This document shows, one piece after another, positions 1 through 17,478 of a stretch of 18,143 nt of DNA. The translations under genes were made by a program, and so were the position numbers. Under the pieces are notes generated by a model. It saw only the letters and a program-made list of their open reading frames with translations, was not told the DNA's origin and searched no databases. The DNA comes from a virus, in the IMG/VR virus record IMGVR_UViG_3300045988_098312, positions 1-18,143 of that record. One strand, 5' to 3'. Each line of letters starts with the position of its first letter. Positions within the stretch are counted from its first letter, which is position 1.

Positions 1-119
1 CATCACAATGTTCCACGTGAAACAATGACCCACACGGGCACGTAGTGGATTATGTGAAATTACAAAAACACTTGTATTCTAGAATAGCTGTGCTATAATT
101 AGGGTACAAAGAAGGAGGG
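1..119. repeat. Left inverted terminal repeat (119 bp, perfect)
   Basis: Bases 1-119 equal the reverse complement of 18025-18143, compared base by base. The first mismatch is at position 120 (c) versus the complement of 18024 (t). Long ITRs at both ends together with TP and protein-primed DNAP genes indicate the ends and origins of a linear genome. Confidence 0.97.
72..99 (+). promoter_or_regulatory. Early promoter inside the left ITR
   Basis: TTGTAT (72-77), 16-nt spacer, TG-extended -10 TGcTATAAT (91-99). It is followed by SD GAAGGAGGG (111-119) and ATG at 128. The spacer contains the perfect palindrome ATTCTAGAAT (76-85). Confidence 0.7.
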
Positions 120-127
120 CAAAGAAA

Positions 128-385
128 ATGACATTAAAAGAAGTATATGACAATGTGATATTAAATAATTATAATGTCACTAGGGAGTCTATTAAATTGA
201 TTAATGTAGATGTATGTAAAAAGGACTTAGTGGTTAATTGTATTAGATCAATGCAAGCAATTTTAATTAATGCTGTTAAAGATGAAGGTATAACATGCAC
301 TGATTTTCAATACTTAAATTTACAGGTAGCTGATTTATGTGATGAATTACTTAAGTGTATTGATGGTGAATCTATTTTCTTATAA
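128..385 (+). CDS. Early protein, unknown function (85 aa)
   Basis: ATG lies 8 nt after SD GAAGGAGGG at the edge of the ITR. It is the first gene of the left early operon. No motif recognised. Confidence 0.7.
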   Translation: MTLKEVYDNVILNNYNVTRESIKLINVDVCKKDLVVNCIRSMQAILINAVKDEGITCTDFQYLNLQVADLCDELLKCIDGESIFL

Positions 386-403
386 TGTTAGGAGGTAAGT
401 GCT

Positions 404-682
404 ATGAAACATTATAGTATTAGAAACATTTGTATTGATTATGATGGTATTAGAAATGAGCAATATATTTCTAAAAGTAAATTAAAAAAAGTTGTATATA
501 ATTTCATTTATGGACAATTAAGTACATCTATGTTGGACCGAATGGAAAAACATAATATTAAGGTGAGTGTTTATTGGCACTATAGCTGGTGGCAACCTGT
601 TGTTTATATTCCTCCATTTTGTGATTATATTGATGTATTATATCAATTAGGTGATGATTTGGGGTTGTATCGTTATGAGTAG
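404..682 (+). CDS. Early protein, unknown function (92 aa)
   Basis: SD AGGAGG lies 8 nt upstream of the ATG. The gene is tightly packed after the previous ORF. Confidence 0.7.
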   Translation: MKHYSIRNICIDYDGIRNEQYISKSKLKKVVYNFIYGQLSTSMLDRMEKHNIKVSVYWHYSWWQPVVYIPPFCDYIDVLYQLGDDLGLYRYE

Positions 683-974
683 AATTTACAAACATTCACA
701 CAATCCAAGTAATATGACAATGGATAATATTAATAATATCGTTGATATTATAGAGACGTATTTATGTGATTATAAACTTGGTTTTCATCTAGTATATCAG
801 CGTAGTCATTTAATTAGAATGGATATTCGTAAATTAAATTCAAAGAGTGTAATAGCTAGTTATTCGTTTCGGTATAACACTATGACAATGTTTAAACGAA
901 AAGTTTTTCAGGGTGTTGTTTCACTTGGTGACATGATTCAAGAAAATGAAAGACGAGGATATAATTATGATTAG
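651..974 (+). CDS. Early protein, unknown function; start uncertain
   Basis: Open frame 651-974. Candidate starts are GTG 651, ATG 654 and ATG 675. ATG 675 overlaps the upstream stop region, with GGGG about 10 nt upstream. None has a strong SD. Confidence 0.55.
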   Translation: MMIWGCIVMSRIYKHSHNPSNMTMDNINNIVDIIETYLCDYKLGFHLVYQRSHLIRMDIRKLNSKSVIASYSFRYNTMTMFKRKVFQGVVSLGDMIQENERRGYNYD

Positions 975-1182
975 TAATTTAATCCTTGCAAGTTTTATAA
1001 TTTGGGTGGTATTATCTGTATACCAAATATACCAGCATTGCAAAGGAAACTTTAAATATTATAAAGTGTCAAACAGATACATAAATTTCATTATATTATT
1101 AATTATAATGTTAGTTATGTGGTTTGTATTAATAAATATGCAAATTGATGAATTATTGGAGGTGTGTCATGTAAAATATTAA
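967..1182 (+). CDS. Small early membrane protein (about 71 aa, two hydrophobic segments)
   Basis: ATG 967 is preferred over ATG 946 because GAGG lies about 8 nt upstream and it overlaps the stop of the previous ORF. Hydrophobic stretches are ISNLILASFIIWVVLSVY and INFIILLIIMLVMWFVLI. Confidence 0.6.
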   Translation: MISNLILASFIIWVVLSVYQIYQHCKGNFKYYKVSNRYINFIILLIIMLVMWFVLINMQIDELLEVCHVKY

Positions 1183-1304
1183 AGTGTTATGACTTCACTA
1201 AAAAGCGATGTAGGTTGTAAATTGTTATGCTGGTTACAAAATTAGACAACTTGAAATAAATTAATTGAAAAAGCAAAAGTTAAAATTAAAAGGAGAATAT
1301 TAAA

Positions 1305-1706
1305 ATGGAAAATTTAGGAAATGAAGTAATGGCAATGGAAAATACAGGGTTAGTTGTGACTGAGGACATGACTCATGAGCAACGTGTTAACTTATTCAAC
1401 GCGGTAAATAATGCGGAAGGTTTAAGCGATCAAGTAGGTAAGGACTTGTATTTGACAGGATATATCGTGCAAGATGTTGAAAAGGAAAATGAAAAAACAG
1501 GTGAGATTATCTGTAGTAAACTAATCACTGTAATTGATAAAGAAGGTAAGGCATATGCTACAAATAGTAAACCTTTCTTACAATCATTAAAGCAACTTAA
1601 ACAAGTATTTAACTATGATTGGACAAAAGAACCGGTGTGTGTGACAATCATTCAGAAAAAATCAAATTCAAGCTCGAATAAATATTTAAGCATGGCTGTA
1701 AAATAG
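1305..1706 (+). CDS. Single-stranded DNA-binding protein, phi29 p5-like
   Basis: Strong SD AAGGAG lies 8 nt upstream. The pattern along the length recalls phi29 p5: MEN.. N-terminus, ..FNA.., and a C-terminal V.V.Q..S....K.. motif. It sits directly upstream of TP and DNAP, as gene 5 does in phi29. It is followed by a strong terminator, consistent with a highly expressed product. Confidence 0.6.
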   Translation: MENLGNEVMAMENTGLVVTEDMTHEQRVNLFNAVNNAEGLSDQVGKDLYLTGYIVQDVEKENEKTGEIICSKLITVIDKEGKAYATNSKPFLQSLKQLKQVFNYDWTKEPVCVTIIQKKSNSSSNKYLSMAVK

Positions 1707-1717
1707 CCTAATAAAAT

Positions 1718-1749
1718 AAGGGTGTTAGCCAAACACCCTTTTATTTTTT
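1718..1749 (+). terminator. Intrinsic terminator between the SSB and TP genes
   Basis: Stem AAGGGTGTT (1718-1726) pairs with AACACCCTT (1732-1740), with a 5-nt loop, then TTATTTTTT. Confidence 0.75.
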
Positions 1750-1771
1750 GACTTAAAAGGGGGTGTTTAAA

Positions 1772-2605
1772 TTGGCTAAAATGAGAAAATCAAGCAAAGA
1801 CGTTAAGCGGTTAAGAAATGCTATAGCAAGTGCTAAGCGAACTGCCACAAGAGCACAAAACTTGGGGCAGGATGTTGTTTTTACGGATATACGAACAATA
1901 AAAGATTTTAATGATCGTAAGGAATTTAATAAATATTTAAAATCAATTGAGCGATTCAATAAAGAAAATAGATACATTGAAAATAGGTACGGTGTTGTTT
2001 TCAATCGTAACGATATTGAAAAGGCTAATAAGCTAGTGGATAAACAGAATAAGCAAAGAAAAAAACTAGCTAGAAGTGTTGGGTTAACGAAATTAAAAGA
2101 AACAAAAGGCGGTATCGCAACGGGTGTTAGTGTTAGAAATGCTCTTTCTGTTTTAAAAGATGACAGAGGCGGATTTTTTGAACCCGTCCACCATGTTAAT
2201 ATCCAGAGTTATAGATATCCTAAACAATTAGCTAATCGAATTGAAAGTTTAGAGGAAAATACTAAGAAGAAAAATAAAAAAATTACAAATTTAAGATTGA
2301 ATTACGAGACAGCTTTAGGGAAACATGTTAGAGGTAATATAATTACAGAAGAAGAAGCGAAAGAAATTTTAAAAGATATAAAATCTTTATCAGATAAAGA
2401 TTTTATAAAATGGTTTTACCAAGAGAGAAAAGCACTTAATACATTTAAATATCTAGATTTAAGCCGTGAGTATACAGAAAACCAAATGTTTGTTAACGAG
2501 CAACTTAGTCGAGCGTTAAAATCAGATATGGCAGATGTAAGAGAAAGTTTGGCGGTGTTTACCGGACGTGCCTATGTTAGCGGTGGTGTTGTTAAGTATA
2601 AATAA
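1772..2605 (+). CDS. Terminal protein (DNA-priming protein), phi29 p3-like
   Basis: It lies immediately upstream of the protein-primed DNAP and has a phi29-TP-like size. Remembered similarity to phi29 TP includes the segments ..DFNDRKEFNKY.., ..NRYGVV.., ..LRLNY.. and ..DKDFIKWFY... TTG 1772 sits 8 nt after AAAAGGGGG. GTG 1763 lies inside the SD, and ATG 1781 is an alternative start. Confidence 0.8.
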   Translation: MAKMRKSSKDVKRLRNAIASAKRTATRAQNLGQDVVFTDIRTIKDFNDRKEFNKYLKSIERFNKENRYIENRYGVVFNRNDIEKANKLVDKQNKQRKKLARSVGLTKLKETKGGIATGVSVRNALSVLKDDRGGFFEPVHHVNIQSYRYPKQLANRIESLEENTKKKNKKITNLRLNYETALGKHVRGNIITEEEAKEILKDIKSLSDKDFIKWFYQERKALNTFKYLDLSREYTENQMFVNEQLSRALKSDMADVRESLAVFTGRAYVSGGVVKYK

Positions 2606-2623
2606 TGTAAAGGGGGTTGTGGT

Positions 2624-4450
2624 ATGGCAAAGAAAAAAGAGCCTAAAGAGATTTGGGCGTGTGACTTTGAGACCACGACCGACCCTTTAGACTGTAGAGT
2701 TTGGGCATGGGGCGCAAGTTTTGTTGAAGATTCGAGTATAAAAGAATATGGCAATACTATAGATGGGTTTATTGATTGGTGTAAAGAAAAAACACGAAAA
2801 TTGTATTTTCACAATTTAGCATTCGATGGTGAGTTTATTGTAAGCTGGTTATTAAATAATGGCTATGAATATTCCGAGAAACCTAAAACCGGATGTTTTA
2901 AAACAATCATATCGAATACAGGTTTGTGGTATTCCATTGAAATATGGTGGAAGTATTCAATTTATCGGTCCACAAAAACAACTATATGGGATTCGTTTAA
3001 GTTAATTCCCTTTAGTATTAAAAAGATTGCGCATGATTTTAATTTACCAATACGAAAATTAAAATTAGACTATACAACAAAAAGAGAAAAAGGACACGAG
3101 TTAACCCCTCATGAAGTTGATTATTTGTTTAATGACATCGATATTGAAGGTATGGCATTGAATGAATGTTTTAAATTAGGATTTAATAAAATGACGGCGA
3201 CAAGCTGTAGTTTTGAGTCATTCAAGAAAACTTTGCCTATGGCGTTTGATAAAATATTCCCAACACTAGAAATGAATGTTGACAGAGATTTAAGACCGGC
3301 TTACGCTGGCGGTTTTGTTTGGGCTAATCCGGAACTAAAAGAACAAGAAATATCTCAAGGTATTGTATTTGATGTAAATTCACTTTTTCCATCACGTATG
3401 TACTATGAGAATTTACCTTATGAAACACCCATATATTTTGAGGGTAAATATCAACAGGATGACGAATATCCTTTATGGGTTGGCGTGATTAGTTTTGCGT
3501 TTGATATTAAAAAAGATCATATTCCTTGTATTTCACTAGATAAGTTTTCTCGGTTTTTTGGAAGTAAAAAATATGTAGATAGTTCAAACGGTGACATTGT
3601 GAGAATGACTGTCACGAGTGTTGATTGGCAGCTATTTAATGAACAATATGATATTTATGATGTTGAATTTCATAATGGGTATAAATTTAGAGGTTGTGTA
3701 GGTATTGCACGACAGTTTATTGATGAGCAAATGGAAGTTAAGAAAAATTCCAAAGGTGCGCAACGTTTCATTGCTAAAAGAAAAATGAACTCTGTTTATG
3801 GAAAATTCGCAACAAACCCAAATGTCACACCTAAAATTCCTTTCATTGATGAGGATGACGGTATTTTAAGACTTCATGACCCTATGTTTACAACGTTTGA
3901 AAATGGTGAGGTTAAAGAGGTCATTGACGAGCAGTTTAGAGATCCTATTTATTTGCCTTACGGCGAATTTGTAACAGCTTACGCACGTAAATATACAATA
4001 TCAACCGCACAAAAAGTAGGTATCCATAGAGTCGCATATATTGATACGGATTCAATACATCTAGTGGGTACACAAGTTCCGAACGCAATTAAAGATATTA
4101 TTGATGATAAAGAGTTAGGCTATTGGGGTCTAGAATCAATATTTAATAGGTCTTATTTTATTGGGGCTAAGTCTTATGTTGAAGAAATTGAAATCAGCTA
4201 TAAGGAATATGTAGAACATCAACAGGAGTATATAGATGAGAATGATTGTAAAGATAATCTTTATTATATTCGTGGCGGAGTATGTTATTATTTGAATGTA
4301 AAATGCGCTGGTATGACAGAGAAGGCGAAACAGAATGTAACATATGATAACTTTAGAGTTGGAAATGTTATTAATGACTGTTTAAAAAAGACGCACGTAC
4401 CCGGTGGCATTGTATTAGTAGATAGACAATTCAGTATTAAAAGTAGGTAA
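2624..4450 (+). CDS. Protein-primed family-B DNA polymerase, phi29 p2-like
   Basis: Exo motifs: Exo I DFETTT, Exo II HNLAFDGEFI, Exo III YLFNDIDI. Pol motifs: motif A DVNSLFPS, motif B KRKMNSVYGKF, motif C YIDTDS, and a K.Y motif GAKSYVE. The order and wording closely parallel the phi29 DNAP. Confidence 0.95.
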   Translation: MAKKKEPKEIWACDFETTTDPLDCRVWAWGASFVEDSSIKEYGNTIDGFIDWCKEKTRKLYFHNLAFDGEFIVSWLLNNGYEYSEKPKTGCFKTIISNTGLWYSIEIWWKYSIYRSTKTTIWDSFKLIPFSIKKIAHDFNLPIRKLKLDYTTKREKGHELTPHEVDYLFNDIDIEGMALNECFKLGFNKMTATSCSFESFKKTLPMAFDKIFPTLEMNVDRDLRPAYAGGFVWANPELKEQEISQGIVFDVNSLFPSRMYYENLPYETPIYFEGKYQQDDEYPLWVGVISFAFDIKKDHIPCISLDKFSRFFGSKKYVDSSNGDIVRMTVTSVDWQLFNEQYDIYDVEFHNGYKFRGCVGIARQFIDEQMEVKKNSKGAQRFIAKRKMNSVYGKFATNPNVTPKIPFIDEDDGILRLHDPMFTTFENGEVKEVIDEQFRDPIYLPYGEFVTAYARKYTISTAQKVGIHRVAYIDTDSIHLVGTQVPNAIKDIIDDKELGYWGLESIFNRSYFIGAKSYVEEIEISYKEYVEHQQEYIDENDCKDNLYYIRGGVCYYLNVKCAGMTEKAKQNVTYDNFRVGNVINDCLKKTHVPGGIVLVDRQFSIKSR

Positions 4451-4463
4451 TGAGGTTGATAAG

Positions 4464-4592
4464 GTGATAAGTGTTTTAACAAGTATATTGTATTATTTAT
4501 TTATGGCATTTTGTTGTTTAAGCGTAACATTTCTATTTGTTGTGTATATTATAGGAATGGGGTTAATGATTATTTGGATTATAAAGGAGTAG
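4464..4592 (+). CDS. Possible 42-aa hydrophobic micro-protein (not in the ORF track)
   Basis: GTG 4464 lies 8 nt after TGAGG. The translation is VISVLTSILYYLFMAFCCLSVTFLFVVYIIGMGLMIIWIIKE*. It fills the DNAP-to-next-gene gap exactly, and its stop lies within the SD of the next gene. Confidence 0.4.
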   Translation: MISVLTSILYYLFMAFCCLSVTFLFVVYIIGMGLMIIWIIKE

Positions 4593-4596
4593 AAAA

Positions 4597-5040
4597 ATGG
4601 AATTTATGTTTTTAATGATTTTAATATGCGTTATTTTGTTAACAGCTTTCAGTTTGGTTATATATTGCAAATATAAAGCATTAAGTGACAACTATAAATA
4701 TTTTAATAAAGAAATTGATAGTTTATCATATGAAGTTTATCATCGTGATAATGCAATATTTAAAAAGTGTGATAAGACTCTAAAAGAATTTAACGAGATC
4801 ATGTTTGGAAGTCCTCCACTTAAAAATAAAGTTGTAGTCGTAAGAAGTATAAAAGATTATGATTATTCAGCCTATCGAAAAGATATTGATATGTTAAACC
4901 AATATTTAGAAAATGGTTGGAGTATTGTGAATCATGAAACGAATGAGTTTGTTCACACATATATATTAGGTAAACCGCTGGCATGGTATGAAGAAAAAGA
5001 AGGTGATGAGGATGATGAGCGAGAAATCGAAACAGCATAG
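4597..5040 (+). CDS. Early membrane-anchored protein with an acidic C-terminus (147 aa)
   Basis: SD AAGGAG lies 7 nt upstream. The N-terminal TM segment is FMFLMILICVILLTAFSLVIYC, followed by a soluble domain and the tail EEKEGDEDDEREIETA. Confidence 0.75.
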   Translation: MEFMFLMILICVILLTAFSLVIYCKYKALSDNYKYFNKEIDSLSYEVYHRDNAIFKKCDKTLKEFNEIMFGSPPLKNKVVVVRSIKDYDYSAYRKDIDMLNQYLENGWSIVNHETNEFVHTYILGKPLAWYEEKEGDEDDEREIETA

Positions 5041-5197
5041 AAACCAATGGTATAGGGATAACGTAAATAAATATTGTGTTTGCGTCAATAAAAATGAAGT
5101 TGAAGTTGTTGGATATATTGAAGATTTATTGAAAAATAAAAAGTTTAGTCAATATGTTAAAGATAAAGTTAAAGAAGATTTGGCAAAAAGTAAATAG
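5012..5197 (+). CDS. Small basic protein, putative ribbon-helix-helix (Arc/CopG-like) DNA-binding protein
   Basis: ATG 5012 or 5015 follows AAGGTGATGAGG. The pattern ..RNQWYRDNVNKYCVCVNKNEVEVVGYIEDLL..FSQYVKDKVKEDL fits an N-terminal basic arm, a beta strand and two helices, as in small plasmid and phage RHH proteins. It overlaps the end of the previous gene in another frame. Confidence 0.5.
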   Translation: MMSEKSKQHRNQWYRDNVNKYCVCVNKNEVEVVGYIEDLLKNKKFSQYVKDKVKEDLAKSK

Positions 5198-5208
5198 CAT
5201 GCTAATAT
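5180..5208 (+). promoter_or_regulatory. Promoter for a non-coding unit
   Basis: TTGGCA (5180-5185), 17-nt spacer, TG-extended -10 TGcTAATAT (5200-5208). It straddles the stop codon (5195-5197) of the RHH-like ORF. Confidence 0.55.
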
Positions 5209-5214
5209 ATAAAC

Positions 5215-5368
5215 GTAAGGAATAAAGACAGGAAATCAGACATGTATGTTAGGTTTACTCGCGGTGAAACGTGCTAACAACATATATAGGAATAGTAAAC
5301 TAGCTGGTAACACTTTAAACTTTACAACCTATATTTATGAAACCCTCTTAAAAGAGGGTTTTATTTTA
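5215..5368 (+). ncRNA. Candidate structured small RNA of about 150 nt (possible prohead/packaging RNA analogue)
   Basis: It has its own promoter (5180-5208) and its own terminator (5341-5368). No ORF exceeds 11 codons. A bulged hairpin can be traced by hand: TGTTAG (5247-5252) pairs with CTAACA (5274-5279), and inside it GTTTAC (5253-5258) pairs with GT(G)AAAC (5264-5270). ATATAGG (5284-5290) is complementary to CCTATAT (5328-5334). Its position just after the replication and membrane-protein early genes matches where phi29 encodes pRNA. Confidence 0.4.
5341..5368 (+). terminator. Intrinsic terminator ending the left early operon and the ncRNA unit
   Basis: ACCCTC (5342-5347) pairs with GAGGGT (5354-5359). 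The stem can extend to AACCCTCTT/AAGAGGGTT. It is followed by TTTTATTTTAT. Confidence 0.8.
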
Positions 5369-5370
5369 TA

Positions 5371-5399
5371 TTGACTTTACAATATTAATAGAATATATT
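5371..5399 (+). promoter_or_regulatory. Late-operon promoter
   Basis: TTGACT (5371-5376), 17-nt spacer, TATATT (5394-5399). It lies directly after the early terminator and 24 nt before the scaffold gene ATG. Confidence 0.65.
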
Positions 5400-5422
5400 A
5401 GTAATAGAAGGGATGTGTAAAA

Positions 5423-5698
5423 ATGGAACGTGATGAATTACGAGAAAAGTTTACAGAGGTGTTGACTGTGGAAGATCAAGCGGAACGTTCAACTATGTTG
5501 AATGATATGCGCGCGGAAGTCGAAAAAACTTATACAGAGTTAGACAATTTGAAAGCCGAAAACACAAAATTAGTTGAAAAGAATACCTCATTAACAGAGG
5601 CAAACTCTAAACTATTTATGCAAATTGGTGTAGAAAAATCCGGTGGCGAAAAACCGAAACATGTTGCACCAATGGACTTACGAAAATTAGGTATTTAA
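5423..5698 (+). CDS. Scaffolding protein, phi29 gp7-like
   Basis: A 91-aa charged, coiled-coil-type sequence (..ELDNLKAENTKLVEKNTSLTEANSKL..) lies immediately upstream of the capsid gene, as gp7 lies before gp8 in phi29. Confidence 0.75.
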   Translation: MERDELREKFTEVLTVEDQAERSTMLNDMRAEVEKTYTELDNLKAENTKLVEKNTSLTEANSKLFMQIGVEKSGGEKPKHVAPMDLRKLGI

Positions 5699-5715
5699 TG
5701 AAAGAGGTGAATTAG

Positions 5716-7065
5716 ATGTCAAAAACAACAGGAGAAGATGTGACTAAAACGTTACAAAATGATTTAGGTATGGACCATAAACCAACAGGTCAAGAAGTTG
5801 CGAGTGCAATGTATGCAATGAGTTCAAGTAACTTTAGGAGTACAATCGGAGACCCAAACGAAACAAGTTCTTTAGAGTTTATGAACGGTTTATTAGAATA
5901 TCCGGATACTTTAGGTGTTGAGTTTATGAATTTGGCTACACGTATTGGTAAAGTGATTGCACACCGCAATATTCTAACGAACAAACTAGCACCATTTAAA
6001 ATGGAAAACATGCCTTTAGGCTATACTATGGAAGAATACTTTGTTGAGTGCGCTAAAGAGCACGAATACAATCAAGCGGACGCGGAAAACACTCTTTTTA
6101 TGAGAAGTTTACCCGATATTAAAACAGCTTTCTACGTAGTAAACAGAAAGTCATACTACCCAGCAACTATTACGGATGATGATTTACGTAAGTATTTTGT
6201 TACTTGGGATGGTGTAAATAGTTTGATTGCTCGTATTGTTGACTCTATGTATAATGGTGATAACAAAGACGATTATAATTATATGAAATCCGCTTTAGTT
6301 ACTCACTACGAAAACGGACACATGAAAATTGTAAATACGAATGCTGTAACAGATACGGAAACAGCTAAAGAATTAGCCCGTAAAATTACAGAATACGTAT
6401 CATATTTAACTGAACCAACAAATGAATATAATGCTATGGCAGTTACTAAACAAAATGAATATGATGATATCTATGTTATCTTGAACGGTAAAACAAATAG
6501 TTATTTAAACATTGATTGGTTGGCTCAAACATTCCAGCTAGAGTTTGCTCAATTCAAAACTCATGTATTAGTATTACCAACTTTACCAAGTACAGCACAA
6601 GGAACTATCGAGGCTATAGTGTGCGACTCAGAAATTTATAGAGTATTTGACCAAAAGTACAGCGTAGGTGTGGCTTACAATGCTAAAGGTTTATATTGGA
6701 ATTATTTCTTGCACCACTGGGAAGGAATTGCGACAAGTCGATTCGCAAACGCGATTGCTTTTGTATCCGGTAATGTTGAGGAAAAAGTTACAGCGATCTA
6801 TTCTAACCCACAAGTTGTAGAAGTTCGTAAAGGTGCGACTATTACCGTACCGTTTACAGTACAAACAAGTGGTTTAAATGCTAAGTATAGTTTAACAGCT
6901 ACATCTAGTGTTGAGGATAAAGTTAAAGCGACAATCGAAAGTGATTTGAAACACGTTAAGATTGAAGGTTTAGAGGCTATTGACGCGGAAGGATTAGCAA
7001 CTGTAACAATCAAAGATACAATTTCTAATGTGACATGCGATATTAAGGTTGTATATAACGTATAG
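5716..7065 (+). CDS. Major capsid protein with a C-terminal Ig-like (BIG2-type) domain, phi29 gp8-like
   Basis: SD AAAGAGGTGA. At 449 aa it is close to phi29 gp8 in size. The C-terminal 90 aa or so (..VEVRKGATITVPFTVQTSG..ATVTIKDTISNVTCDIKVVY) has a bacterial Ig-like pattern. It follows the scaffold gene and is followed by a hairpin and a terminator. Confidence 0.85.
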   Translation: MSKTTGEDVTKTLQNDLGMDHKPTGQEVASAMYAMSSSNFRSTIGDPNETSSLEFMNGLLEYPDTLGVEFMNLATRIGKVIAHRNILTNKLAPFKMENMPLGYTMEEYFVECAKEHEYNQADAENTLFMRSLPDIKTAFYVVNRKSYYPATITDDDLRKYFVTWDGVNSLIARIVDSMYNGDNKDDYNYMKSALVTHYENGHMKIVNTNAVTDTETAKELARKITEYVSYLTEPTNEYNAMAVTKQNEYDDIYVILNGKTNSYLNIDWLAQTFQLEFAQFKTHVLVLPTLPSTAQGTIEAIVCDSEIYRVFDQKYSVGVAYNAKGLYWNYFLHHWEGIATSRFANAIAFVSGNVEEKVTAIYSNPQVVEVRKGATITVPFTVQTSGLNAKYSLTATSSVEDKVKATIESDLKHVKIEGLEAIDAEGLATVTIKDTISNVTCDIKVVYNV

Positions 7066-7077
7066 TTATGTTATAAT
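7048..7077 (+). promoter_or_regulatory. Possible promoter overlapping the capsid stop codon
   Basis: TTGTAT (7048-7053), the same -35 hexamer as the ITR promoter, then an 18-nt spacer and TG-extended -10 TGtTATAAT (7069-7077). Chance occurrence in AT-rich DNA cannot be excluded. Confidence 0.35.
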
Positions 7078-7081
7078 ACTA

Positions 7082-7104
7082 GTGTCATGAGTAGGACATG
7101 ACAC
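7082..7104 (+). other. Perfect 8-bp hairpin followed by a single-stranded CCCUCCUU motif
   Basis: GTGTCATG (7082-7089) pairs with CATGACAC (7097-7104) around a 7-nt loop. No U-tract follows. Instead CCCTCCTT (7105-7112) follows, which is complementary to the SD core AAGGAGGG. Confidence 0.6.
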
Positions 7105-7134
7105 CCCTCCTTTCTATAGTCAAGTGAGTATGGG

Positions 7135-7175
7135 AAAAGAAACATATTAATTTATGTTTCTTTTTCTTTTTCTTT
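7135..7175 (+). terminator. Intrinsic terminator after the capsid gene
   Basis: AAAAGAAACAT (7135-7145) pairs with ATGTTTCTTTT (7154-7164) around an 8-nt loop, followed by a T-rich tail. Confidence 0.65.
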
Positions 7176-7178
7176 ATA

Positions 7179-7207
7179 TTGAAAAATAATGTTTAGTTTG
7201 TTAAATT
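7179..7207 (+). promoter_or_regulatory. Possible re-initiation promoter for the holin and appendage genes
   Basis: TTGAAA (7179-7184), 17-nt spacer, TG-extended TGtTAAATT (7199-7207). Confidence 0.4.
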
Positions 7208-7230
7208 AAATTTAGAAAGAGGTGATTAAA

Positions 7231-7575
7231 ATGAAGATTATTTTAATTTCGTTGGTTTTTAACGGTTTGGATCTTGTTACTGGAATTGTAGGCGCACTTA
7301 AAAATGGTGAGCAAATTAAATCTAGTAAATTAAGAGATGGACTATTTAAAAAAGTAGGTTTTGTTTTTTGTTATGCGTTAGGTGAGGCAATTAACTATGC
7401 TAAATTATATTTACCAATTCCGTTTGGCGATAAATTACTACCTATTATATGTGTTTATACAATTACAACAGAAGTTGTTAGTATTTGTGAAAACATCACA
7501 AAAATTAATCCGGACATCTTACCGGATAAATTAAAACAATTAATTGGATATAAAGGAGTTGATTTAGATGAATAA
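7231..7575 (+). CDS. Holin (phi LC3 / Phage_holin_4_1-type)
   Basis: ATG 7231 follows GAAAGAGGTGA, and the GTG 7222 of the ORF track lies inside that SD. The N-terminal signature is ..NGLDLVTGIVGALKNGEQIKSSKLRDGLFKKVG.. There are about three hydrophobic segments and a charged C-terminus. Confidence 0.8.
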   Translation: MKIILISLVFNGLDLVTGIVGALKNGEQIKSSKLRDGLFKKVGFVFCYALGEAINYAKLYLPIPFGDKLLPIICVYTITTEVVSICENITKINPDILPDKLKQLIGYKGVDLDE

Positions 7576-9430
7576 TGAAAAAGAAAAAGATGCAATTGAT
7601 ACATCTAAAATTGATAAAATACTTCCTGAGTATGATCCGTTAAAGTTAAATGGTATTAACCTAGCTCAAAATTACGTTAGCGCGTTTAATACTGGTATGA
7701 ATATTTATCAATGTGTCAATCAATTACAAGGCTATATTGAATGGGTTATTAAAGCTGTAAATGATGTTGTTAAATCATGGAATATACAAGTTGGTGAATC
7801 TATTGAACAATCAAAAGCTATTGTAAAAGAAACTACAACAGAACAATTTAATAAAGAATGGACAAATAAACAGCCAGAAATAATTGAACAATCAAAAGAA
7901 ACTACAACAGAACAATTTAATATAGAATGGACAAATAAACAGCCAGAATTAATTGAACAAGTAAATAGATTAACAACAAATCAATTTAATATTGAAAAGT
8001 CTGTATTTAATGATGAATTAAGTGCACTTGATGTACGTATGAATAATTTTGATTTAGAATTGAATACATTAAATAATTATATTACACCAGAAATGTATGG
8101 TGCTAAAGGTGATGGTGTAACGGATGATACAAACGCAATTCAACAATGTATTGATAATGCAATAGAAACTAAAAAAGATATATTTTTACAAAATAAAATA
8201 TATCTAACAACTCAGCCTTTACAAATTCAAGAAAAATTTACTATGCGTGGGATTAGTTACACTGATGAATATTATGGTCAAGCTTGCATTAAAAACAACT
8301 TAACAAATATATTTGCACCCAAAACATCAGCATTAGATGCTGGAATAAAGTTTTTAAATATCAGATTTATAGGCAATCAAAATTTTATTGCGAATGCAAA
8401 TTTTAATTGGAGTCAAATTAGGCATTGTGGTTTTGTTGGCTTTTCTAAAGTATTTGAAAGTACTACTTTTTTAGGTTGTTGGTTAACAGATCTATTTATT
8501 AATAATATTAAAACAATTGGTACGTTAAGCGGTTCAGACAATAATTTTAATAATTGGTTTATTAATGGACATAGCGCAAATCAAGGTAATAATGAACCAT
8601 TAATAACTGTATATGGATGCTCATTATCTAGATTTACTAACATTTATTGTACTGGCGTTGAGGTTGGTGAACAAAATACATATGGTTCTAATATAGTATT
8701 ATTCATTGATGGTTATACCGAAAATTTAGTATTTGATCATTGCTGGTTTGATTATGCGAATGATGTATTGATAAAAATTAAAGGGCGTGATAATGATGTA
8801 CCAAAAAGTATTGTTAATAATATTACATTTAATCAATGTTGTATTCGCGGTGGATGTTTAAAAGTAAGAAGTTCATATATTGATGCTGATTTGTGTAGTG
8901 GTATAACATTTAATCAATGTTTTTTCGATAAACATCATATTGATGTTCCTAGTGTTGAAGGTTATACAATATTTAACATTGGAAGTACATTAGTACGAGG
9001 TTTTTTCAACAATAATAACACATACATGATACCAAGAACTGTAAGTGGTGATAAAGAAAGAATTTCAGAGTTATTTCTAGCAACGAACAGTAACAACCCA
9101 AAAGCAATAAATAGCGGTATTGGAATTTCAGGATCTATCGAAAATAATATTTATTTACAAAATGCTAAAATAGAATACAGAAAAGAAAAAGTAACAACTG
9201 ATAGTCAATATGGTTCATTTACTATTTATTCTAGTTCTAATGCTAAAGAAAGTGTTATAATTGCTATACCAGTAGTCAACAATGCTGTTTGTTGTGTAAA
9301 CGAGGTTACAGACAATTCAACTCAATTTATACTACGCAACGTGCAAACCGGTGATGCAATTATTTCAAAAGAAATGTATGTAATGTTATTTATTATTTAT
9401 TTTGAAGATAATAACTGGGGAACATTATAA
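7568..9430 (+). CDS. Tail appendage / tailspike with a pectate-lyase-type beta-helix (phi29 gp12 analogue)
   Basis: SD AAGGAG. The motif ITPEMYGAKGDGVTDDTNAIQQCID is typical of the N-terminal cap of right-handed beta-helix depolymerases. A long N/I/F/C-rich repetitive beta region follows. There are N-terminal tandem repeats. The start overlaps the end of the holin gene. Confidence 0.75.
   Translation: MNNEKEKDAIDTSKIDKILPEYDPLKLNGINLAQNYVSAFNTGMNIYQCVNQLQGYIEWVIKAVNDVVKSWNIQVGESIEQSKAIVKETTTEQFNKEWTNKQPEIIEQSKETTTEQFNIEWTNKQPELIEQVNRLTTNQFNIEKSVFNDELSALDVRMNNFDLELNTLNNYITPEMYGAKGDGVTDDTNAIQQCIDNAIETKKDIFLQNKIYLTTQPLQIQEKFTMRGISYTDEYYGQACIKNNLTNIFAPKTSALDAGIKFLNIRFIGNQNFIANANFNWSQIRHCGFVGFSKVFESTTFLGCWLTDLFINNIKTIGTLSGSDNNFNNWFINGHSANQGNNEPLITVYGCSLSRFTNIYCTGVEVGEQNTYGSNIVLFIDGYTENLVFDHCWFDYANDVLIKIKGRDNDVPKSIVNNITFNQCCIRGGCLKVRSSYIDADLCSGITFNQCFFDKHHIDVPSVEGYTIFNIGSTLVRGFFNNNNTYMIPRTVSGDKERISELFLATNSNNPKAINSGIGISGSIENNIYLQNAKIEYRKEKVTTDSQYGSFTIYSSSNAKESVIIAIPVVNNAVCCVNEVTDNSTQFILRNVQTGDAIISKEMYVMLFIIYFEDNNWGTL
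7802..7960 (+). repeat. In-frame tandem repeat in the appendage gene
   Basis: Unit 1 is 7802-7882 (81 nt). Unit 2 is 7883-7951 (69 nt) and is nearly identical apart from a 12-nt indel. A diverged third copy starts at 7952. Peptides are IEQSK(AIVK)ETTTEQFN(K/I)EWTNKQPE(I/L), then IEQVNRLTTNQFNIEKS. Confidence 0.9.
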
Positions 9431-9461
9431 TGTTAAACATATTTAATTAAATTTTTTATAT

Positions 9462-9496
9462 AAACACGGATATTAATTCCGTGTTTTAATTTTCTT
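9462..9496 (+). terminator. Intrinsic terminator after the appendage gene
   Basis: AAACACGGA (9462-9470) pairs with TCCGTGTTT (9478-9486) around a 7-nt loop, then TAATTTTCTT. Confidence 0.75.
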
Positions 9497-9547
9497 ATTT
9501 AACATTAATAAATATTATTATAGAATATAGAAAAAGGAGTGATAAAT

Positions 9548-9763
9548 ATGAATAGTAAAAAATGTGAACTATCTAGCATTTATAAAATGCAAAAACCGGA
9601 AGATATTCCGTATAGTTTACCGGAAGGATTATCCGTTTATTTTTACATTGAATTTTATATGCAATGTATGCACATTTTAAAAGATGTTGATTATGAACGA
9701 TATAACATATGTAAAGAAAAACTAAAAGAATTAACAATATTAGAAGAGGAATTGAATTTATGA
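9548..9763 (+). CDS. Hypothetical late protein (71 aa)
   Basis: ATG 9548 follows AAAAAGGAGTGA, and the GTG 9539 of the track lies within that SD. Its stop overlaps the next start (ATGA), implying translational coupling to the tail lysin. No motif recognised. Confidence 0.6.
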   Translation: MNSKKCELSSIYKMQKPEDIPYSLPEGLSVYFYIEFYMQCMHILKDVDYERYNICKEKLKELTILEEELNL

Positions 9764-10959
9764 AGGCTGGTCAAAAATTAGAAAAAGATGGTAAGCAAGT
9801 ATGTTTATATCCGCTTGAAACCATGTATATTACGCAATGGTCAAGTCCAACATCTGAATCACACTGTTGTGGACATCCGTTTGATAATGCCGTATCTGGT
9901 CAAGTAAGAGTTCCAGTATATGCACCGTTCGATTGTCATTTAATACATACTTATCCATCTGGAAATACTCGAGTCTATCAAAGTGATAATGTAGTATGGA
10001 CACCAAGCGGATTAAAAACAGTTGTAGTTAGTTTTACGCATGATCCAAACCCACCAACAGCAACACAATATAAACAAGGTGATTTAATTTATCACACTGG
10101 CACGGCTGGAATGGCAACTGGTGATCATGTACATATAGATCAATCGTTTACAGTTGATGCTGGATTAGTTAGTTATGGTGTAGTGTGTAGCTATGGTAAT
10201 GAATGTTATGCGTTAAGTGGTTCAGAATTACCAACAAATGTATTTTATGTGAATGATACAAATATCGTAAATGCTTATGGTCAAGAGTTTAAAATATTTG
10301 ATGGTGGTGATGTTCCTACACCAGAACCAAGTTACAAATACATTAATCATTACGTTTTATTAGATGGTTTAGGTGTTGATTTTGGTTTTTATAAAACAAA
10401 GGAAGAAATTAAACCAGAACCAGCCCCAACCGGTGAATGGTTTATACCGGGTGATATTAACAATACAAGACCATTAACGGAAGAAGAATCTAAAAAGAAC
10501 TGGTTAGCTTTTTGGGCATTCTTTAAAGCTAAAGGATGGACGGCTAATGCTGTATCTGGTATATTAGGTAATTCATATTATGAATCAACTGTTAATCCTA
10601 ATCGTTGGGAAGGTGATATACCTTTTGCACAGCCAGTTGCATCGCGTGGCTATGGTTTGGTGCAATGGACTCCGTGGACTAAAATTATTGACTGGTTAAC
10701 AGAAAAAGGATATTATCCGGACGTGTCTAAATTTGGTGTAGGTGAATGTGAGCGAATTCAATGGGAAATGGAAAACAATCAACAATGGATTGCTACAGCT
10801 ACATATCCAGAATCATTCCGCGATTTTTCAACTTCAACAAAAGATCCATATACATTAGCAATTGAATTTTTAGCAAACTATGAAAGACCAGCCGACCCGA
10901 ACCAGCCACAACGTGGCACGAAAGCGCGCGAGATATATGACTACATAAAAGATAAATAA
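9760..10959 (+). CDS. Tail-associated peptidoglycan hydrolase: N-terminal M23/LAS-like metallopeptidase plus C-terminal phage tail lysozyme domain (phi29 gp13 analogue)
   Basis: The N-terminal half has ..HCCGHPFDNA.. and ..GTAGMATGDHVHIDQ.., a LytM-type H.H motif. A Pro-rich linker (PTPEPS...KPEPAPTGEW) follows. The C-terminal half has ..GWTANAVSGILGNSYYESTVNP...GYGLVQWT...FLANYERP.., typical of the phage tail lysozyme family. Confidence 0.8.
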   Translation: MKAGQKLEKDGKQVCLYPLETMYITQWSSPTSESHCCGHPFDNAVSGQVRVPVYAPFDCHLIHTYPSGNTRVYQSDNVVWTPSGLKTVVVSFTHDPNPPTATQYKQGDLIYHTGTAGMATGDHVHIDQSFTVDAGLVSYGVVCSYGNECYALSGSELPTNVFYVNDTNIVNAYGQEFKIFDGGDVPTPEPSYKYINHYVLLDGLGVDFGFYKTKEEIKPEPAPTGEWFIPGDINNTRPLTEEESKKNWLAFWAFFKAKGWTANAVSGILGNSYYESTVNPNRWEGDIPFAQPVASRGYGLVQWTPWTKIIDWLTEKGYYPDVSKFGVGECERIQWEMENNQQWIATATYPESFRDFSTSTKDPYTLAIEFLANYERPADPNQPQRGTKAREIYDYIKDK

Positions 10960-10960
10960 A

Positions 10961-10986
10961 ATAGTTGAATATTCAACTATTTTTTA
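10961..10986 (+). terminator. Intrinsic terminator after the tail lysin gene
   Basis: ATAGTTGA (10961-10968) pairs with TCAACTAT (10973-10980), followed by TTTTT. Confidence 0.7.
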
Positions 10987-10993
10987 CTAATAT
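10965..10993 (+). promoter_or_regulatory. Promoter embedded in the terminator hairpin, upstream of the tail knob gene
   Basis: TTGAAT (10965-10970, inside the stem), 17-nt spacer, TAATAT (10988-10993). Confidence 0.5.
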
Positions 10994-11020
10994 AAAAATA
11001 TAAAGAAGGAGTTGATTAAA

Positions 11021-13207
11021 ATGAGTATAGGAGTTGTTAACAGTCAATTTACACCACAAAGTAAAATTTATTTATTGAAAGGTTTAGAAATTGACGCAAT
11101 GAATAACACATTTTGGGGTGCATTCGATACACCCGAAAAACAATTTAATTTTTTCATTAATAACTACGATCACATCGTTTTTGAAAATTATACATATCAA
11201 AGAAAAGATGGTACGGTAGTAGTACCGGGTGTTTATGATGATCTACGTTTATACAATTATTTGATTTATCAAAATGGAAATACCGGTAATAAGTCGAAAT
11301 GGATTTATTGTTTTATCACAAGTTTAGGATATCTAAACGACAATGCCACTAGTATTAGTTTTGAAACAGATGTTATTCAAACATGGCGTTTTGAAATTGA
11401 AAGTAACTTTATGGAGTCGTACATCGCATATGAACATAGACCACAATATTATGATACCGGTGATGGTGTACAACGACCTTGTATTAATACACAACCGGAG
11501 AATTTAGAGATTGGAACGGATTTAATTAGTGACAAACAATATCTAATAGACGCAAACGGGATAACTAGTTTCGCTGTAATTGGTATGACTTGTGATATGT
11601 CCGGAACAGACAGCTACACAAACGCACAATTAGGAACACCATCTCAAATTAACTATTATGTTTTTCCTTTCAGTCGATATACGGGAACTGATATAACATC
11701 TTTAAAAATTGGTAGTGTAAGCGGTCAAACTGTGACAATCAGCGGACTTTCAAAAGTATTAGACGCCATTAGAAAAAATGAGAAATTAGTAGGTAAATGT
11801 GTATCTATTGTTGTTACGAATTCTATACCCGGTTTAGTTGTTGAGAATGGTCAAGTTGTCATTAAACGAGATTGCTTTAGTGGTGAACAACAAGGCGATT
11901 ATCAGATATTAACGTATAAAGCTAAAACGATGAATGACATGCTTTCAAATGATTTAAACGCATATGCAAAAACACGTGTATATAATATACCAGCGTTTAT
12001 TGGATTTACTCAATTCACAAAATTATACACGTATCCTTACAGCTATATGCTTATTAGTGATAATAACGGAGCAACAAAAGCTTTTAAAAATGAATTATGG
12101 AAAGACATGAAAAACGCACAGTTTATATATGTCGGCTCACCAAACAGCTCAAAAATAAATATTGTACCATTAAATTATAAAGTAACAAAATCAGATGAAA
12201 ATTATTCAGATTTAATTAATCTAGATAACTCTTTTGAATCGCAATATGAGACAAGTTTACCTATTATTAGTGACACAACCGCATTAATGTTACAATCCTC
12301 ACGTAACTCTATGAACGTAGGATTATCCAATATTAGGAGATCAAACGAAACAAATTCAGCTATAGCAAGCGCAACCGGTAATGCGTTAAGCGCACAAACT
12401 AATTTACAAAATAACTTAAATTTAAGTGTTACCGCACGTAACGCAAATTTAGCAAGTAATTTAAACGATTTACATAACAAGTCGAACATGATAAATGCTA
12501 GTATAAGCGCAATAGGCGGTTTAAGCGGTGGTATTGCCAGCGCACTAACCGGTAATATTGGCGGTGCGGTAGGTAGTTTAGTTGGTGCTGGCTTAGGTAT
12601 TGGACAAACAGCTATGCAAAACCAAATCAACACAAAACAAACCAATATGCAAAACGCAAACGCACTTGCAAATGCAAATGCACAAGCGAGTGCTAATAGT
12701 CAATCTACAGCCATAGGAAACCAATTGAGACAGTTAACAACACAATATCAAAATCAGACTAATATTCAGAATGCTATGGATAGTTACAATGCACGTATCC
12801 ACGACGCACAGGCAACGGCTGACAGTATTGTAACCGGTTCAAATGATTTAATGCGACAAATAGCACTAGATTTAAACACATTCGTATTATATGTTTATCG
12901 ACCTACAGACGAATACAAACAGAAACTAGAAAAAATATGGAACATGCGAGGTTACGCGACAAATGTTATTGACTATCCTAATTTACGATCTAAAATATCA
13001 TGGAACTATATTCAAACTGTAAAATGTAATATTAAAGGTACAAATATCGACCCAAGCGACTTAGAAAAAATTAAACGTGTATTTGATAATGGTATTACAC
13101 TATGGCACAATAAAAACGTTGGTGATTATTCACAAAATAATGGTGAAAGATATTCGTATACGCAATGTGACAAATACGGAAACTATAAAGAAAAGAAAGT
13201 ACATTAA
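11021..13207 (+). CDS. Tail knob (distal tail tube) protein, phi29 gp9-like
   Basis: ATG 11021 follows AAGAAGGAG, and the TTG 11012 of the track lies in the SD region. The N-terminal region ..YLIYQNGNTGNKSKWIYCFITSLGYLNDNATSISFETDVIQTWRFEIESNFMESYIAYEH closely parallels remembered phi29 gp9 (..FQNADYGNKWFYAFVT..FEIDVLQTWMFDI..REH). It contains a long N/Q/A/S/G low-complexity insert. Confidence 0.85.
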   Translation: MSIGVVNSQFTPQSKIYLLKGLEIDAMNNTFWGAFDTPEKQFNFFINNYDHIVFENYTYQRKDGTVVVPGVYDDLRLYNYLIYQNGNTGNKSKWIYCFITSLGYLNDNATSISFETDVIQTWRFEIESNFMESYIAYEHRPQYYDTGDGVQRPCINTQPENLEIGTDLISDKQYLIDANGITSFAVIGMTCDMSGTDSYTNAQLGTPSQINYYVFPFSRYTGTDITSLKIGSVSGQTVTISGLSKVLDAIRKNEKLVGKCVSIVVTNSIPGLVVENGQVVIKRDCFSGEQQGDYQILTYKAKTMNDMLSNDLNAYAKTRVYNIPAFIGFTQFTKLYTYPYSYMLISDNNGATKAFKNELWKDMKNAQFIYVGSPNSSKINIVPLNYKVTKSDENYSDLINLDNSFESQYETSLPIISDTTALMLQSSRNSMNVGLSNIRRSNETNSAIASATGNALSAQTNLQNNLNLSVTARNANLASNLNDLHNKSNMINASISAIGGLSGGIASALTGNIGGAVGSLVGAGLGIGQTAMQNQINTKQTNMQNANALANANAQASANSQSTAIGNQLRQLTTQYQNQTNIQNAMDSYNARIHDAQATADSIVTGSNDLMRQIALDLNTFVLYVYRPTDEYKQKLEKIWNMRGYATNVIDYPNLRSKISWNYIQTVKCNIKGTNIDPSDLEKIKRVFDNGITLWHNKNVGDYSQNNGERYSYTQCDKYGNYKEKKVH

Positions 13208-13210
13208 TAT

Positions 13211-13240
13211 AAAAGGTTGACGGTTCAACCTTTTTTATTT
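13211..13240 (+). terminator. Intrinsic terminator after the tail knob gene
   Basis: AAAAGGTTGA (13211-13220) pairs with TCAACCTTTT (13225-13234) around a 4-nt loop, and the T-run continues. Confidence 0.8.
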
Positions 13241-13269
13241 AACATATAATTAAAAGGAGATGATTAAAA

Positions 13270-14208
13270 ATGGATTTATTGAATGACACAAGTTCGTTTA
13301 CAGACTACTGTAGGAATGCTGTGGATGTTGCTACTATGAACAATGGAGAAGCCGACTTTATATATTACACATATTTACAAATGTTAAGCTTAAATATGTT
13401 TAAATATAAAGGTTTACCCGAATCCATTAACACGTTCTATTTAGAATATGTTTTACAAACACGTGGTTACATTGGTTTTTATGATGATGAAAGATTAGGT
13501 TTAATCTGTAGTGAGATCACATTAGGCGGTCGGTTAAACCACTATCAAATGCCTACAGATTATCATACAGTATCAACAAGCCCACTTATAAAGAAGAACT
13601 TAACAAGTGACGAGTGCGTAGTTATGAAAAACAGTCCTTTGTATGTTGGTATTTTTCCTTACTTAAACTTTTTTGCTAAGAAATTAGCGTTAACAAGTAG
13701 AACGATGGATCAAAACTTAACAATGCAATGGACACCATACATTATTACAGGCGATAGACGAATGTTACAACAATTTAAAGTGTTCATGAAAAAGATTTTA
13801 CAAGGTGTACAAACGATATTTACCTCAAAAGGTTTTAGAATGGAAGACGTTAATGTACTACAAACGAATGCCCCTTTTATTGCCGACGAATTGCACGGCA
13901 TGAAACAAGCGATCTTGCGTGAATGTATGACTCTATTAGGAATTGAAAACGCTAATATGGACAAAAAAGAAAGATTAGTTAGTGATGAAGTAAACGCCAA
14001 TAACCAACAGGTTATTGCGTCTCGTAATATTTGGCTAAGTGAGCGTAAAAAAGCGATTGAAGAATTAAATAAGAAATTTAATTTAAATGCTAGTGTTGAG
14101 TTTGCGCCATATGAAGATTTTGAGGAAATCTTAAAATTAATTGAGTTAGACGGTAGTACAAGCCTTACAGATTTTAAAGATGACCTAACTATTAAAGAAG
14201 GTGATTAG
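13270..14208 (+). CDS. Portal (head-tail connector / upper collar), phi29 gp10-like
   Basis: At 312 aa it is close to phi29 gp10 in size. ..MTLLGIENANMDKKERLVSDEVNANNQQV.. matches remembered gp10 ..[29 protein letters not shown]... The N-terminal ..GLPESIN..LE..L...GYIGFY.. is also conserved. Confidence 0.9.
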   Translation: MDLLNDTSSFTDYCRNAVDVATMNNGEADFIYYTYLQMLSLNMFKYKGLPESINTFYLEYVLQTRGYIGFYDDERLGLICSEITLGGRLNHYQMPTDYHTVSTSPLIKKNLTSDECVVMKNSPLYVGIFPYLNFFAKKLALTSRTMDQNLTMQWTPYIITGDRRMLQQFKVFMKKILQGVQTIFTSKGFRMEDVNVLQTNAPFIADELHGMKQAILRECMTLLGIENANMDKKERLVSDEVNANNQQVIASRNIWLSERKKAIEELNKKFNLNASVEFAPYEDFEEILKLIELDGSTSLTDFKDDLTIKEGD

Positions 14209-14209
14209 T

Positions 14210-14929: not shown

Positions 14930-14941
14930 GAGGTAAAGAAA

Positions 14942-16680: not shown

Positions 16681-16683
16681 AAT

Positions 16684-16713
16684 AAAGAGTGCCATTAATG
16701 CACTCTTTTAAGT
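16684..16713. terminator. Hairpin terminator between the convergent late and right-early operons (probably bidirectional)
   Basis: AAAGAGTGC (16684-16692) pairs with GCACTCTTT (16700-16708) around a 7-nt loop. It is A-rich upstream and T-rich downstream, so it is usable from either direction. Confidence 0.7.
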
Positions 16714-17256: not shown

Positions 17257-17265
17257 AACTAACAC

Positions 17266-17475: not shown

Positions 17476-17478
17476 ACG

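Follow-up and report, generated by a model that had tools for sequence, protein, structure and literature searches.

In the packaging (prohead) RNAs (pRNAs) of the phi29 phage family, helices C and E are separated by a bulge on one strand only, and the pairing of this bulge with the loop of hairpin D, known as the kissing interaction, joins the molecules into a ring; in phi29, the complementary segments are AACC and GGUU. Known pRNAs have 2-5 such kissing pairs, and the pRNA of phage GA-1, treated in the literature as a studied pRNA, has about two potential kissing base pairs and shows no detectable multimerisation on its own (PMC4201828). pRNA has been presented as exclusive to phi29 and its relatives in Bacillus (PMC11476376, a 2024 review; PMC5066667), and predictions elsewhere have been confined to Bacillus-infecting Salasmaviridae (PMC9965433). 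Cp-1, a phi29-like phage of Streptococcus and thus of a non-Bacillus host, has a proposed pRNA (cited in PMC6266182 as reference 61), which is not reliably recovered by a pRNA covariance model (PMC6266182); in the literature, we found no further pRNA outside the Bacillus-type host range. Here we report on a non-coding unit, comprising a promoter, a structured RNA, and a terminator, that lies between the early and late genes of a phi29-like podophage genome, namely the 18,143-nt DNA of IMG/VR virus record IMGVR_UViG_3300045988_098312 (positions 1 to 18,143; this whole stretch is hereafter called the window). We hold with high confidence that this unit is the pRNA gene of the phage, and we infer the role of its RNA in packaging from homology. 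An earlier note on this DNA had proposed a divergent pRNA, a reading now supported by conservation, covariation, a complementary loop pair, and covariance-model links to the GA-1 and phi29 pRNAs; its remark that firm descriptions of pRNAs are limited to Bacillus phages of the phi29 type agrees with the 2024 review (PMC11476376).

At the DNA level, megablast and blastn found no match to the window among 50,697 phage records, and comparisons were therefore drawn from relatives in IMG/VR found through the capsid protein. This search gave 80 loci with 81-98% protein identity, of which 79 include the upstream sequence (78 distinct sequences). The unit is kept in all 79 loci. Moreover, domain I of the RNA surpasses the mostly coding flanks of 3-6 kb in conservation in 76 of the 78 relatives (median, 89.4% versus 80.2%), and the 5' GUAAG, parts of the E loop, and CUAGCU never change among them.

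The fold was derived by RNAalifold on the 79 sequences together with explicit pair counts, using as controls alignments with the pairing partners slid by 1-3 columns and 500 shuffles. Standard pairs made up 96.9% of cells, compared with 33-44% once the partners were slid, and two-sided changes occurred in 18 pairs, compared with 2-5 in these controls; none of the 500 shuffles reached the observed values. As shown by this covariation, domain I folds into helix A, a three-way junction, the C/E arm, and the D hairpin (coordinates in Table 1), and three conserved G-U pairs show that the plus strand is the folded one. The existence of the unit is confirmed, as a structured RNA that has been conserved; both the conservation and the covariation to which the earlier note had looked as a check are seen in the 78 relatives.

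Helix A, which joins the 5' end of the RNA to nucleotides 90-111, is paired in 99.7-100% of cells and shows compensatory changes in 5 of its 16 pairs, an example being UAAAG/CUUUA, which is replaced by AUAACA/UGUUAU in two relatives (L020 and L025). The best-supported part of the fold is the hairpin at 5247-5279 in the C/E arm, with compensatory changes in 6 of 10 pairs. It had been read before as a bulged hairpin of 6+6 bp; the hairpin itself stands and covaries, but is counted here as 6 bp plus 4 bp. Helix C occurs as GUUAG/CUAAC, AUCAG/CUGAU, and ACCGG/CCGGU (four of six pairs compensatory) and helix E as CGCG/CGUG, CAUG/CAUG, and UACG/CGUA. A second pairing proposed in the same note, that of 5284-5290 with 5328-5334, did not hold: it is a perfect 7 bp in the window, but only a 4-bp core is kept in the relatives, and with 72% of cells paired it performs no better than shuffles. 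Helix A (the 5' end with 5304-5325) and the complementarity of bulge and loop were absent from that reading of the sequence.

Two alternative foldings were set aside. The minimum-free-energy fold of the single sequence (z -2.89) mispairs helix C and contains a 9-bp stem, AUGUAUGUU/AACAUAUAU, that contradicts the covariation, and it was therefore replaced by the alignment-based fold. For the D hairpin, RNAalifold paired UAG at 5293-5295 with CUA at 5300-5302, an arrangement that L020 and L025 do not keep and that would use up the kissing nucleotides; for these reasons, the UAG at 5287-5289 was preferred as the 5' strand of the stem, whose UAG/CUA is invariant in 79 of 79 sequences.

The CE bulge sequence UUUACU (5254-5259) is complementary to AGUAAA in the D loop (5294-5299), so that the complementary loop pair anticipated for a pRNA is present and covaries. 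Taken alone, this helix is paired in 90.7% of cells, versus 18-46% in the slid controls, and none of the 500 shuffles is as high. Of its six pairs, five are retained in 91-100% of sequences and the sixth alternates between A-U and U-A. Two-sided changes are seen in four pairs, three of which switch simultaneously in L020 and L025, from UUACU/AGUAA to UUUUC/GAAAA. This complementarity is the kissing signature known from pRNAs.

L020 (3493-3607) and L025 (3482-3595), alongside which L106 is listed, carry a second type of this RNA. Its domain I is 64-66% identical to that of the window, as against 78% for the surrounding genome, and every helix and the kissing pair have been rewritten in a compensatory manner. 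The origin of this type could be an exchange of the module or fast evolution of the RNA.

The relation to known pRNAs was analysed with three covariance models, R1 built only from the window RNA family, R2, its reciprocal, derived from four GA-1-type pRNAs alone and from the structure that RNAalifold gave for them, and R3, a combined model that includes the window RNA family but lacks any member of the phi29 group. The decisive searches were made with the Infernal filters off, the default filters having lost the GA-1 matches; the E-values are rough, and the argument is made from bit scores against the observed noise, end-to-end alignment, and position on annotated pRNAs. In a search over the window and the genomes of phi29, GA-1, Cp-1, and Athos, the best foreign match of R1 was the annotated GA-1 pRNA (31.8 bits, E 1.5e-4; noise at most 16.4 bits), with the match spanning model positions 1-113 and starting at most 1 nt from the annotated 5' end. 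In the opposite direction, R2 matched the window at 5215-5329 (23.7 bits, E 8e-4), as well as L025 (30.7 bits) and L020 (22.4 bits), whereas the phi29 pRNA (15.2 bits) and noise (at most 14.6 bits) both scored below the window RNA. The phi29 pRNA was not found by R1 alone at E up to 10. With R3, it was the top match in 86 kb (34.7 bits, E 1.5e-5), and the resulting cross-family alignment shows a compensatory change in 26 of 32 pairs, although the fitting of this alignment to the model biases the count towards the structure. None of the models gave a convincing match in Enterococcus phage Athos, Streptococcus phage Cp-1, or Clostridium phage CS229P1.

The boundaries of the unit are likewise marked by conservation. 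Its promoter lies across the final codons of the open reading frame (ORF) at 4988-5197, including the TAG stop (5195-5197), agrees with the consensus at 9 of 12 positions, and has the TG of an extended -10 element. In the AT-rich window, 118 promoter-like sites were found against 105 expected by chance; a single site is therefore weak evidence, and its conservation is what counts. Indeed, in the 79 aligned sequences, TTG and TAnTAT are invariant and TG is present in at least 90%, so that the near-consensus promoter described earlier over the stop of the last early ORF is not only present but kept in 79 of 79 relatives. The 6 nt between the -10 element and G5215 form the most variable stretch (mean entropy 0.76 versus 0.25 for the RNA), and near-invariance starts exactly at G5215, 7 nt after the -10 element. 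This onset of conservation and the position at which every covariance-model match begins lead to the prediction of G5215 as the 5' end of the RNA, which would then be about 154 nt long (about 5215-5368). At the other end, the strong intrinsic terminator seen before was found again as a 12-pair stem with a T run; among the terminator-like stems of the window (29, against 7.1 expected), it heads the list of the scan and is the second longest, and it is conserved in the relatives with compensatory changes in two pairs. It marks the predicted 3' end of the RNA, and transcripts reading through from the early genes probably stop there as well. A non-coding unit of about 154 nt with its own promoter thus lies directly after the polymerase-side early ORFs, within the size range (120-175 nt) and at the placement of a pRNA. 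The late promoter that bounds the unit on the other side has TTGAC and TATATT invariant in the alignment of relatives. Its -35 element, TTGACT, is near-consensus, whereas the late promoter A3 of GA-1 is annotated without a consensus -35, and the control of the late genes may differ from the activator-dependent scheme of phi29.

Table 1 Positions in the window of the RNA unit, its structural elements, and the surrounding genes
Feature	Position	Strand	Description
Early (left) block	128-5197	+	SSB, likely terminal protein, family-B DNA polymerase
RNA promoter	5180-5208	+	-35 TTGGCA 5180-5185, 17-nt spacer, TG 5200-5201, -10 TAATAT 5203-5208
Domain I of the pRNA-like RNA	5215-5327	+	113 nt; conservation, covariation, covariance-model matches
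Helix A, 5' strand	5215-5239	+	Segments 5215-5220, 5223-5227, 5235-5239
Helix A, 3' strand	5304-5325	+	Partners 5320-5325, 5313-5317, 5304-5308, respectively
C/E arm	5242-5283	+	RNAalifold and pair counts
Helix C	5242-5244 with 5281-5283; 5247-5252 with 5274-5279	+	Pair counts
CE bulge	5253-5259	+	GUUUACU; 7 nt unpaired on the 5' side alone, separating helix C from helix E
Helix E	5260-5263 with 5270-5273	+	4 bp; loop GUGAAA 5264-5269
D hairpin	5287-5302	+	Stem UAG 5287-5289 with CUA 5300-5302; 10-nt loop 5290-5299
Linker from domain I to terminator	5328-5336	+	Less conserved (entropy 0.44 versus 0.25 for domain I)
Intrinsic terminator	5337-5368	+	Stem 5337-5364, core GAAACCCUC / GAGGGUUUU, then U run; 12 pairs
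Late promoter (bounds the unit, outside the RNA)	5371-5399	+	TTGACT, 17 nt, TATATT; scaffold and capsid genes from 5423
Late block	5423-16680	+	Scaffold, major head protein, connector, gp16-like ATPase
Connector (gp10-like)	13270-14208	+	PHROG 2038 upper collar connector, E 8.9e-69; aligned to the phi29 and GA-1 connectors
Packaging ATPase (gp16-like)	15664-16680	+	PHROG 2150, E 6e-78

Other explanations of the unit were weighed against the same alignment. That the region encodes a small protein is scarcely credible. The 11-codon ORF from 5242, which had been given as the longest in the region, keeps its ATG in 77 of 79 relatives and has GGA 8 nt upstream, but the variability in its frame is highest at codon position 1 and its stop moves. 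A longer ORF of 42 codons is in fact present at 5246-5374, and its frame is open in 54 of the 79 relatives; however, its ATG is found in only 34 of them and has no Shine-Dalgarno sequence, the frame crosses the terminator and the next -35 element, and the variability by codon position is flat (0.28, 0.27, 0.33), with no third-position excess. It is therefore not conserved as a gene. The peptide substitutions are non-conservative (V-R, I-R, T-G) and yet compensatory for the RNA helices, and neither ORF has a PHROG match. With ATG or stop not kept and no coding signal, both were rejected as genes. The early operon offers another reading, in which the region is only its 3' untranslated region and terminator and the conservation reflects mRNA stability elements: no terminator lies between the early stop (5197) and 5337, so that transcripts of the early genes must pass over the region and finish at this terminator too. 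This is very unlikely, because a dedicated promoter is kept in all relatives and conservation begins exactly at its predicted start, because a 3' stability hairpin would need far less than a fold of several helices over 113 nt, with covariation in 18 pairs and in a loop-loop pairing, and because the region is homologous to the GA-1 and phi29 pRNAs.

Slightly less improbable, although still unlikely, is a regulatory RNA that times the switch from early to late expression, either as a cis-acting leader or attenuator or as a small RNA acting in trans. The scaffold and capsid genes follow the unit directly and share its strand, its layout of promoter, structured RNA, and terminator would fit such a role, and in Hungatella phage CH17P1 a homologous RNA has no terminator and leads straight to the ribosome-binding site of the ATPase gene. 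On the other hand, the late genes are served by a separate, invariant TTGACT/TATATT promoter past the terminator, and there is no conserved anti-terminator pairing, the sole candidate beyond domain I (5284-5290 with 5328-5334) lacking covariation. No Rfam regulatory family matches the region above threshold; at E up to 10, the Rfam scan of the region gave only chance-level matches driven by the terminator (rli22, sroH). Finally, both the fold and the sequence match known pRNAs in the reciprocal model searches.

Several observations weigh against the assignment as a pRNA. The Rfam pRNA model RF00044, suggested earlier as a check on the idea, has no match in the window at its gathering score (100 bits) or at E up to 10. 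In the control, it gave 145 bits for the phi29 pRNA but missed the annotated GA-1 pRNA (1719-1879), and its silence is therefore uninformative; RF00044 covers only the phi29 subgroup and is too narrow for pRNAs outside it. The 3-bp D stem, being invariant, is neither supported nor contradicted by covariation. Most of the covariation in the kissing loop comes from one divergent lineage (L020 and L025), whose changes there are probably one evolutionary event. The phage is uncultivated, and its RNA is a prediction from sequence. Basic residues at the N-terminus of the connector form a reported pRNA-binding site in phi29; the connector of the window starts with MDLLNDTSSF and lacks the basic N-terminus of the phi29 protein (MARKRSNTYRS). 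The GA-1 connector, which starts with MLEDGFSYKT, lacks it likewise, and since GA-1 has a known pRNA, this feature does not define the pRNA family. Lastly, co-evolution of RNA and protein is not visible when the ATPase and connector of a relative with the divergent RNA are compared: the RNA of L020, the most divergent, is only 64% identical in domain I, yet its ATPase and connector are 98.5% and 96% identical to those of the window. Motor proteins that stay unchanged while the RNA diverges are compatible with a motor that reads the shape of the RNA, without being positive evidence for one.

The surrounding genome (31.7% G+C) has perfect inverted terminal repeats of 119 bp at 1-119 and 18025-18143, starting from the first base, which makes the window a complete linear genome, probably one replicated by protein priming. 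In phi29, the inverted terminal repeats are only 6 bp long. Matches to PHROG families identify the DNA polymerase (1.4e-142) and the major head protein (3.5e-73), while the likely terminal protein has a weak match, to a family labelled DNA primase. Homologues of gp10 and gp16, the two partners of pRNA named in the earlier note, are both encoded, as judged from matches to PHROG 2038 and PHROG 2150; the connector would be the expected partner of the RNA on the prohead, and the gp16-like ATPase the expected partner of helix A. Terminator-like sites read on both strands lie at 1718-1740, between the SSB and terminal-protein genes, and at 16684-16708, between the ATPase gene and the leftward genes at the right end, and a hairpin stem of 15 pairs directly follows the capsid gene (7132-7167). 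The capsid protein gave no record in an exact-match look-up and is about 32% identical to those of phi29-like phages of Bacillus, Cytobacillus, Enterococcus, and Hungatella. A 20,113-nt sequence with a 98% identical capsid gene (CAAGJJ010000031.1) is filed in a human-gut metagenome-assembled genome, 'Clostridia bacterium HGM12814', and probably represents a phage genome placed in the bin of its host, or else in a wrong bin; this binning gives a weak hint at Clostridia as the host group of this phage type.

Similar RNAs were seen in other phages. Hungatella phage CH17P1 (OP172758.1) has an unannotated pRNA-like RNA at 13651-13810, between the DNA polymerase and packaging ATPase genes (R1, 25.4 bits; R2, a weak 13.7 bits at the same place). 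It has its own promoter (TTGACA / TGgTAACAT), the E loop GUGAAA, and a GCUA/UAGC pair of bulge and loop. Because it lacks a terminator and continues directly into the ribosome-binding site of the ATPase gene, it may be a processed mRNA leader. In Cytobacillus phage Bfsp1 (MZ570263.1), an unannotated candidate pRNA lies on the minus strand at 625-742 (R1, 22.5 bits; R2, 15.0 bits, weak), in a 225-nt gap of the left-end early region, which is the usual position of a pRNA, and its E loop, UUGAGUU, is similar to that of phi29. An unannotated human faecal phage scaffold ('Bacteriophage sp.', MT836152.1) has weak matches at one place, 8686-8803 (R2, 18.9 bits; R3, 21.1 bits), possibly another pRNA of a gut phage. 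Enterococcus phage Athos (LR990834.1) has a syntenic gap at 4577-4842, from the polymerase-side ORF to the scaffold gene, with a promoter (TTTACA, 17 nt, TGgTAAAAT), a strongly structured RNA of about 160 nt (z -4.09), and a terminator. The RNA has a long helix between its 5' and 3' parts and a hairpin, CACG-UGAAAUAU-CGUG, after a 6-nt bulge; it scores at noise level with the pRNA models (11.3 bits) and could be a further subclass of pRNA or something else.

On the model of phi29, the RNA would act as follows. Host RNA polymerase would start at about G5215 from the extended -10 promoter and stop at about 5368, giving a transcript of some 154 nt whose first 113 nt would adopt the domain I fold shown by covariation, with the C/E arm and the D hairpin carried on the junction. 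As in phi29, the bulge UUUACU of one molecule would pair in trans with the D loop AGUAAA of the next, and several copies, if their number is like that in phi29, would close into a ring at the connector end of the prohead. Helix A would presumably point outward and dock the gp16-like ATPase, and the docked ATPase would then pump the protein-primed linear genome into the head, both steps being modelled on the phi29 motor.

Sequence comparison thus indicates that the RNA is very probably a pRNA, from a lineage and a probable host group with no earlier documentation of one, and the homologues in the window, Hungatella, and Cytobacillus phages together suggest that an RNA-dependent motor is widespread among phi29-like phages. 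We lean, by a narrow preference, towards the broader view that pRNA is an ancestral and general part of phi29-like packaging motors, including those of gut Clostridia phages (the window lineage and CH17P1), that the window family is a distinct subclass with a kissing helix of 5-6 bp and a 3-bp D stem, and that the motor proteins read the shape of the RNA and a few invariant nucleotides. This last point, if true, would follow from a change of about 36% in the RNA with an essentially unchanged ATPase and connector. The 78 natural variants amount to a mutational map of fixed nucleotides, helices in which only the pairing is kept, and rewrites of the kissing sequence, which is useful for understanding the role of pRNA in the motor and for RNA nanotechnology, where pRNA three-way junctions and kissing loops are used.

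Among the described systems, Cp-1 resembles the window in its collinear genome, with early genes followed by scaffold and capsid genes on the same strand. Its pRNA candidate was recovered by none of R1, R2, and R3, whereas the window RNA is recovered by models and supported by covariation. The 174-nt phi29 pRNA has in common with the window RNA a helix A between 5' and 3' parts, a three-way junction, a bulged C/E arm, and a D hairpin, as well as a 3' extension past domain I (about 120 nt). It follows the early replication genes and has its own promoter, A1, and the position claimed for the window unit by analogy, just downstream of such genes, is indeed seen, as it is in GA-1. The phi29 pRNA gene, however, lies at the extreme left end of the genome on the strand opposite the late genes, whereas the window RNA is on the late-gene strand. 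Similarly, the early region of GA-1 is divergent from its late operon, whereas the early genes, RNA, and late genes of the window are co-directional.

The GA-1 pRNA, annotated as a misc_RNA on the minus strand of NC_002649 (1719-1879), is the closest to the window RNA by model score in both directions (31.8 and 23.7 bits), although blastn detected no likeness in primary sequence between the window RNA and GA-1 or any other phage record. Like the window unit, it has its own promoter and terminator, lies away from the genome end, and is followed by another promoter. The two RNAs differ in the D hairpin, which has a 6-bp stem and 6-nt loop in GA-1 and a 3-bp stem and 10-nt loop in the window RNA, and in the number of kissing pairs, namely 5-6 in the window RNA, about two in GA-1, and four in phi29. 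Their 5' ends are alike (AUAAGGCAU in GA-1 and GUAAGGAAU in the window RNA), as are the 3' ends of domain I (UUUUAUAA and CUUUACAA, respectively). Both have a three-segment helix A, the helix order A, C, E, D, a CE bulge on the 5' side only (7 nt in the window RNA and 6 nt in GA-1), and a 4-bp helix E closed by an A-rich loop of 6 nt (GUGAAA and GUAAAA, respectively). Indeed, the RNAalifold folds obtained independently for the window family and the GA-1-type pRNAs have the same topology and elements of nearly equal size.

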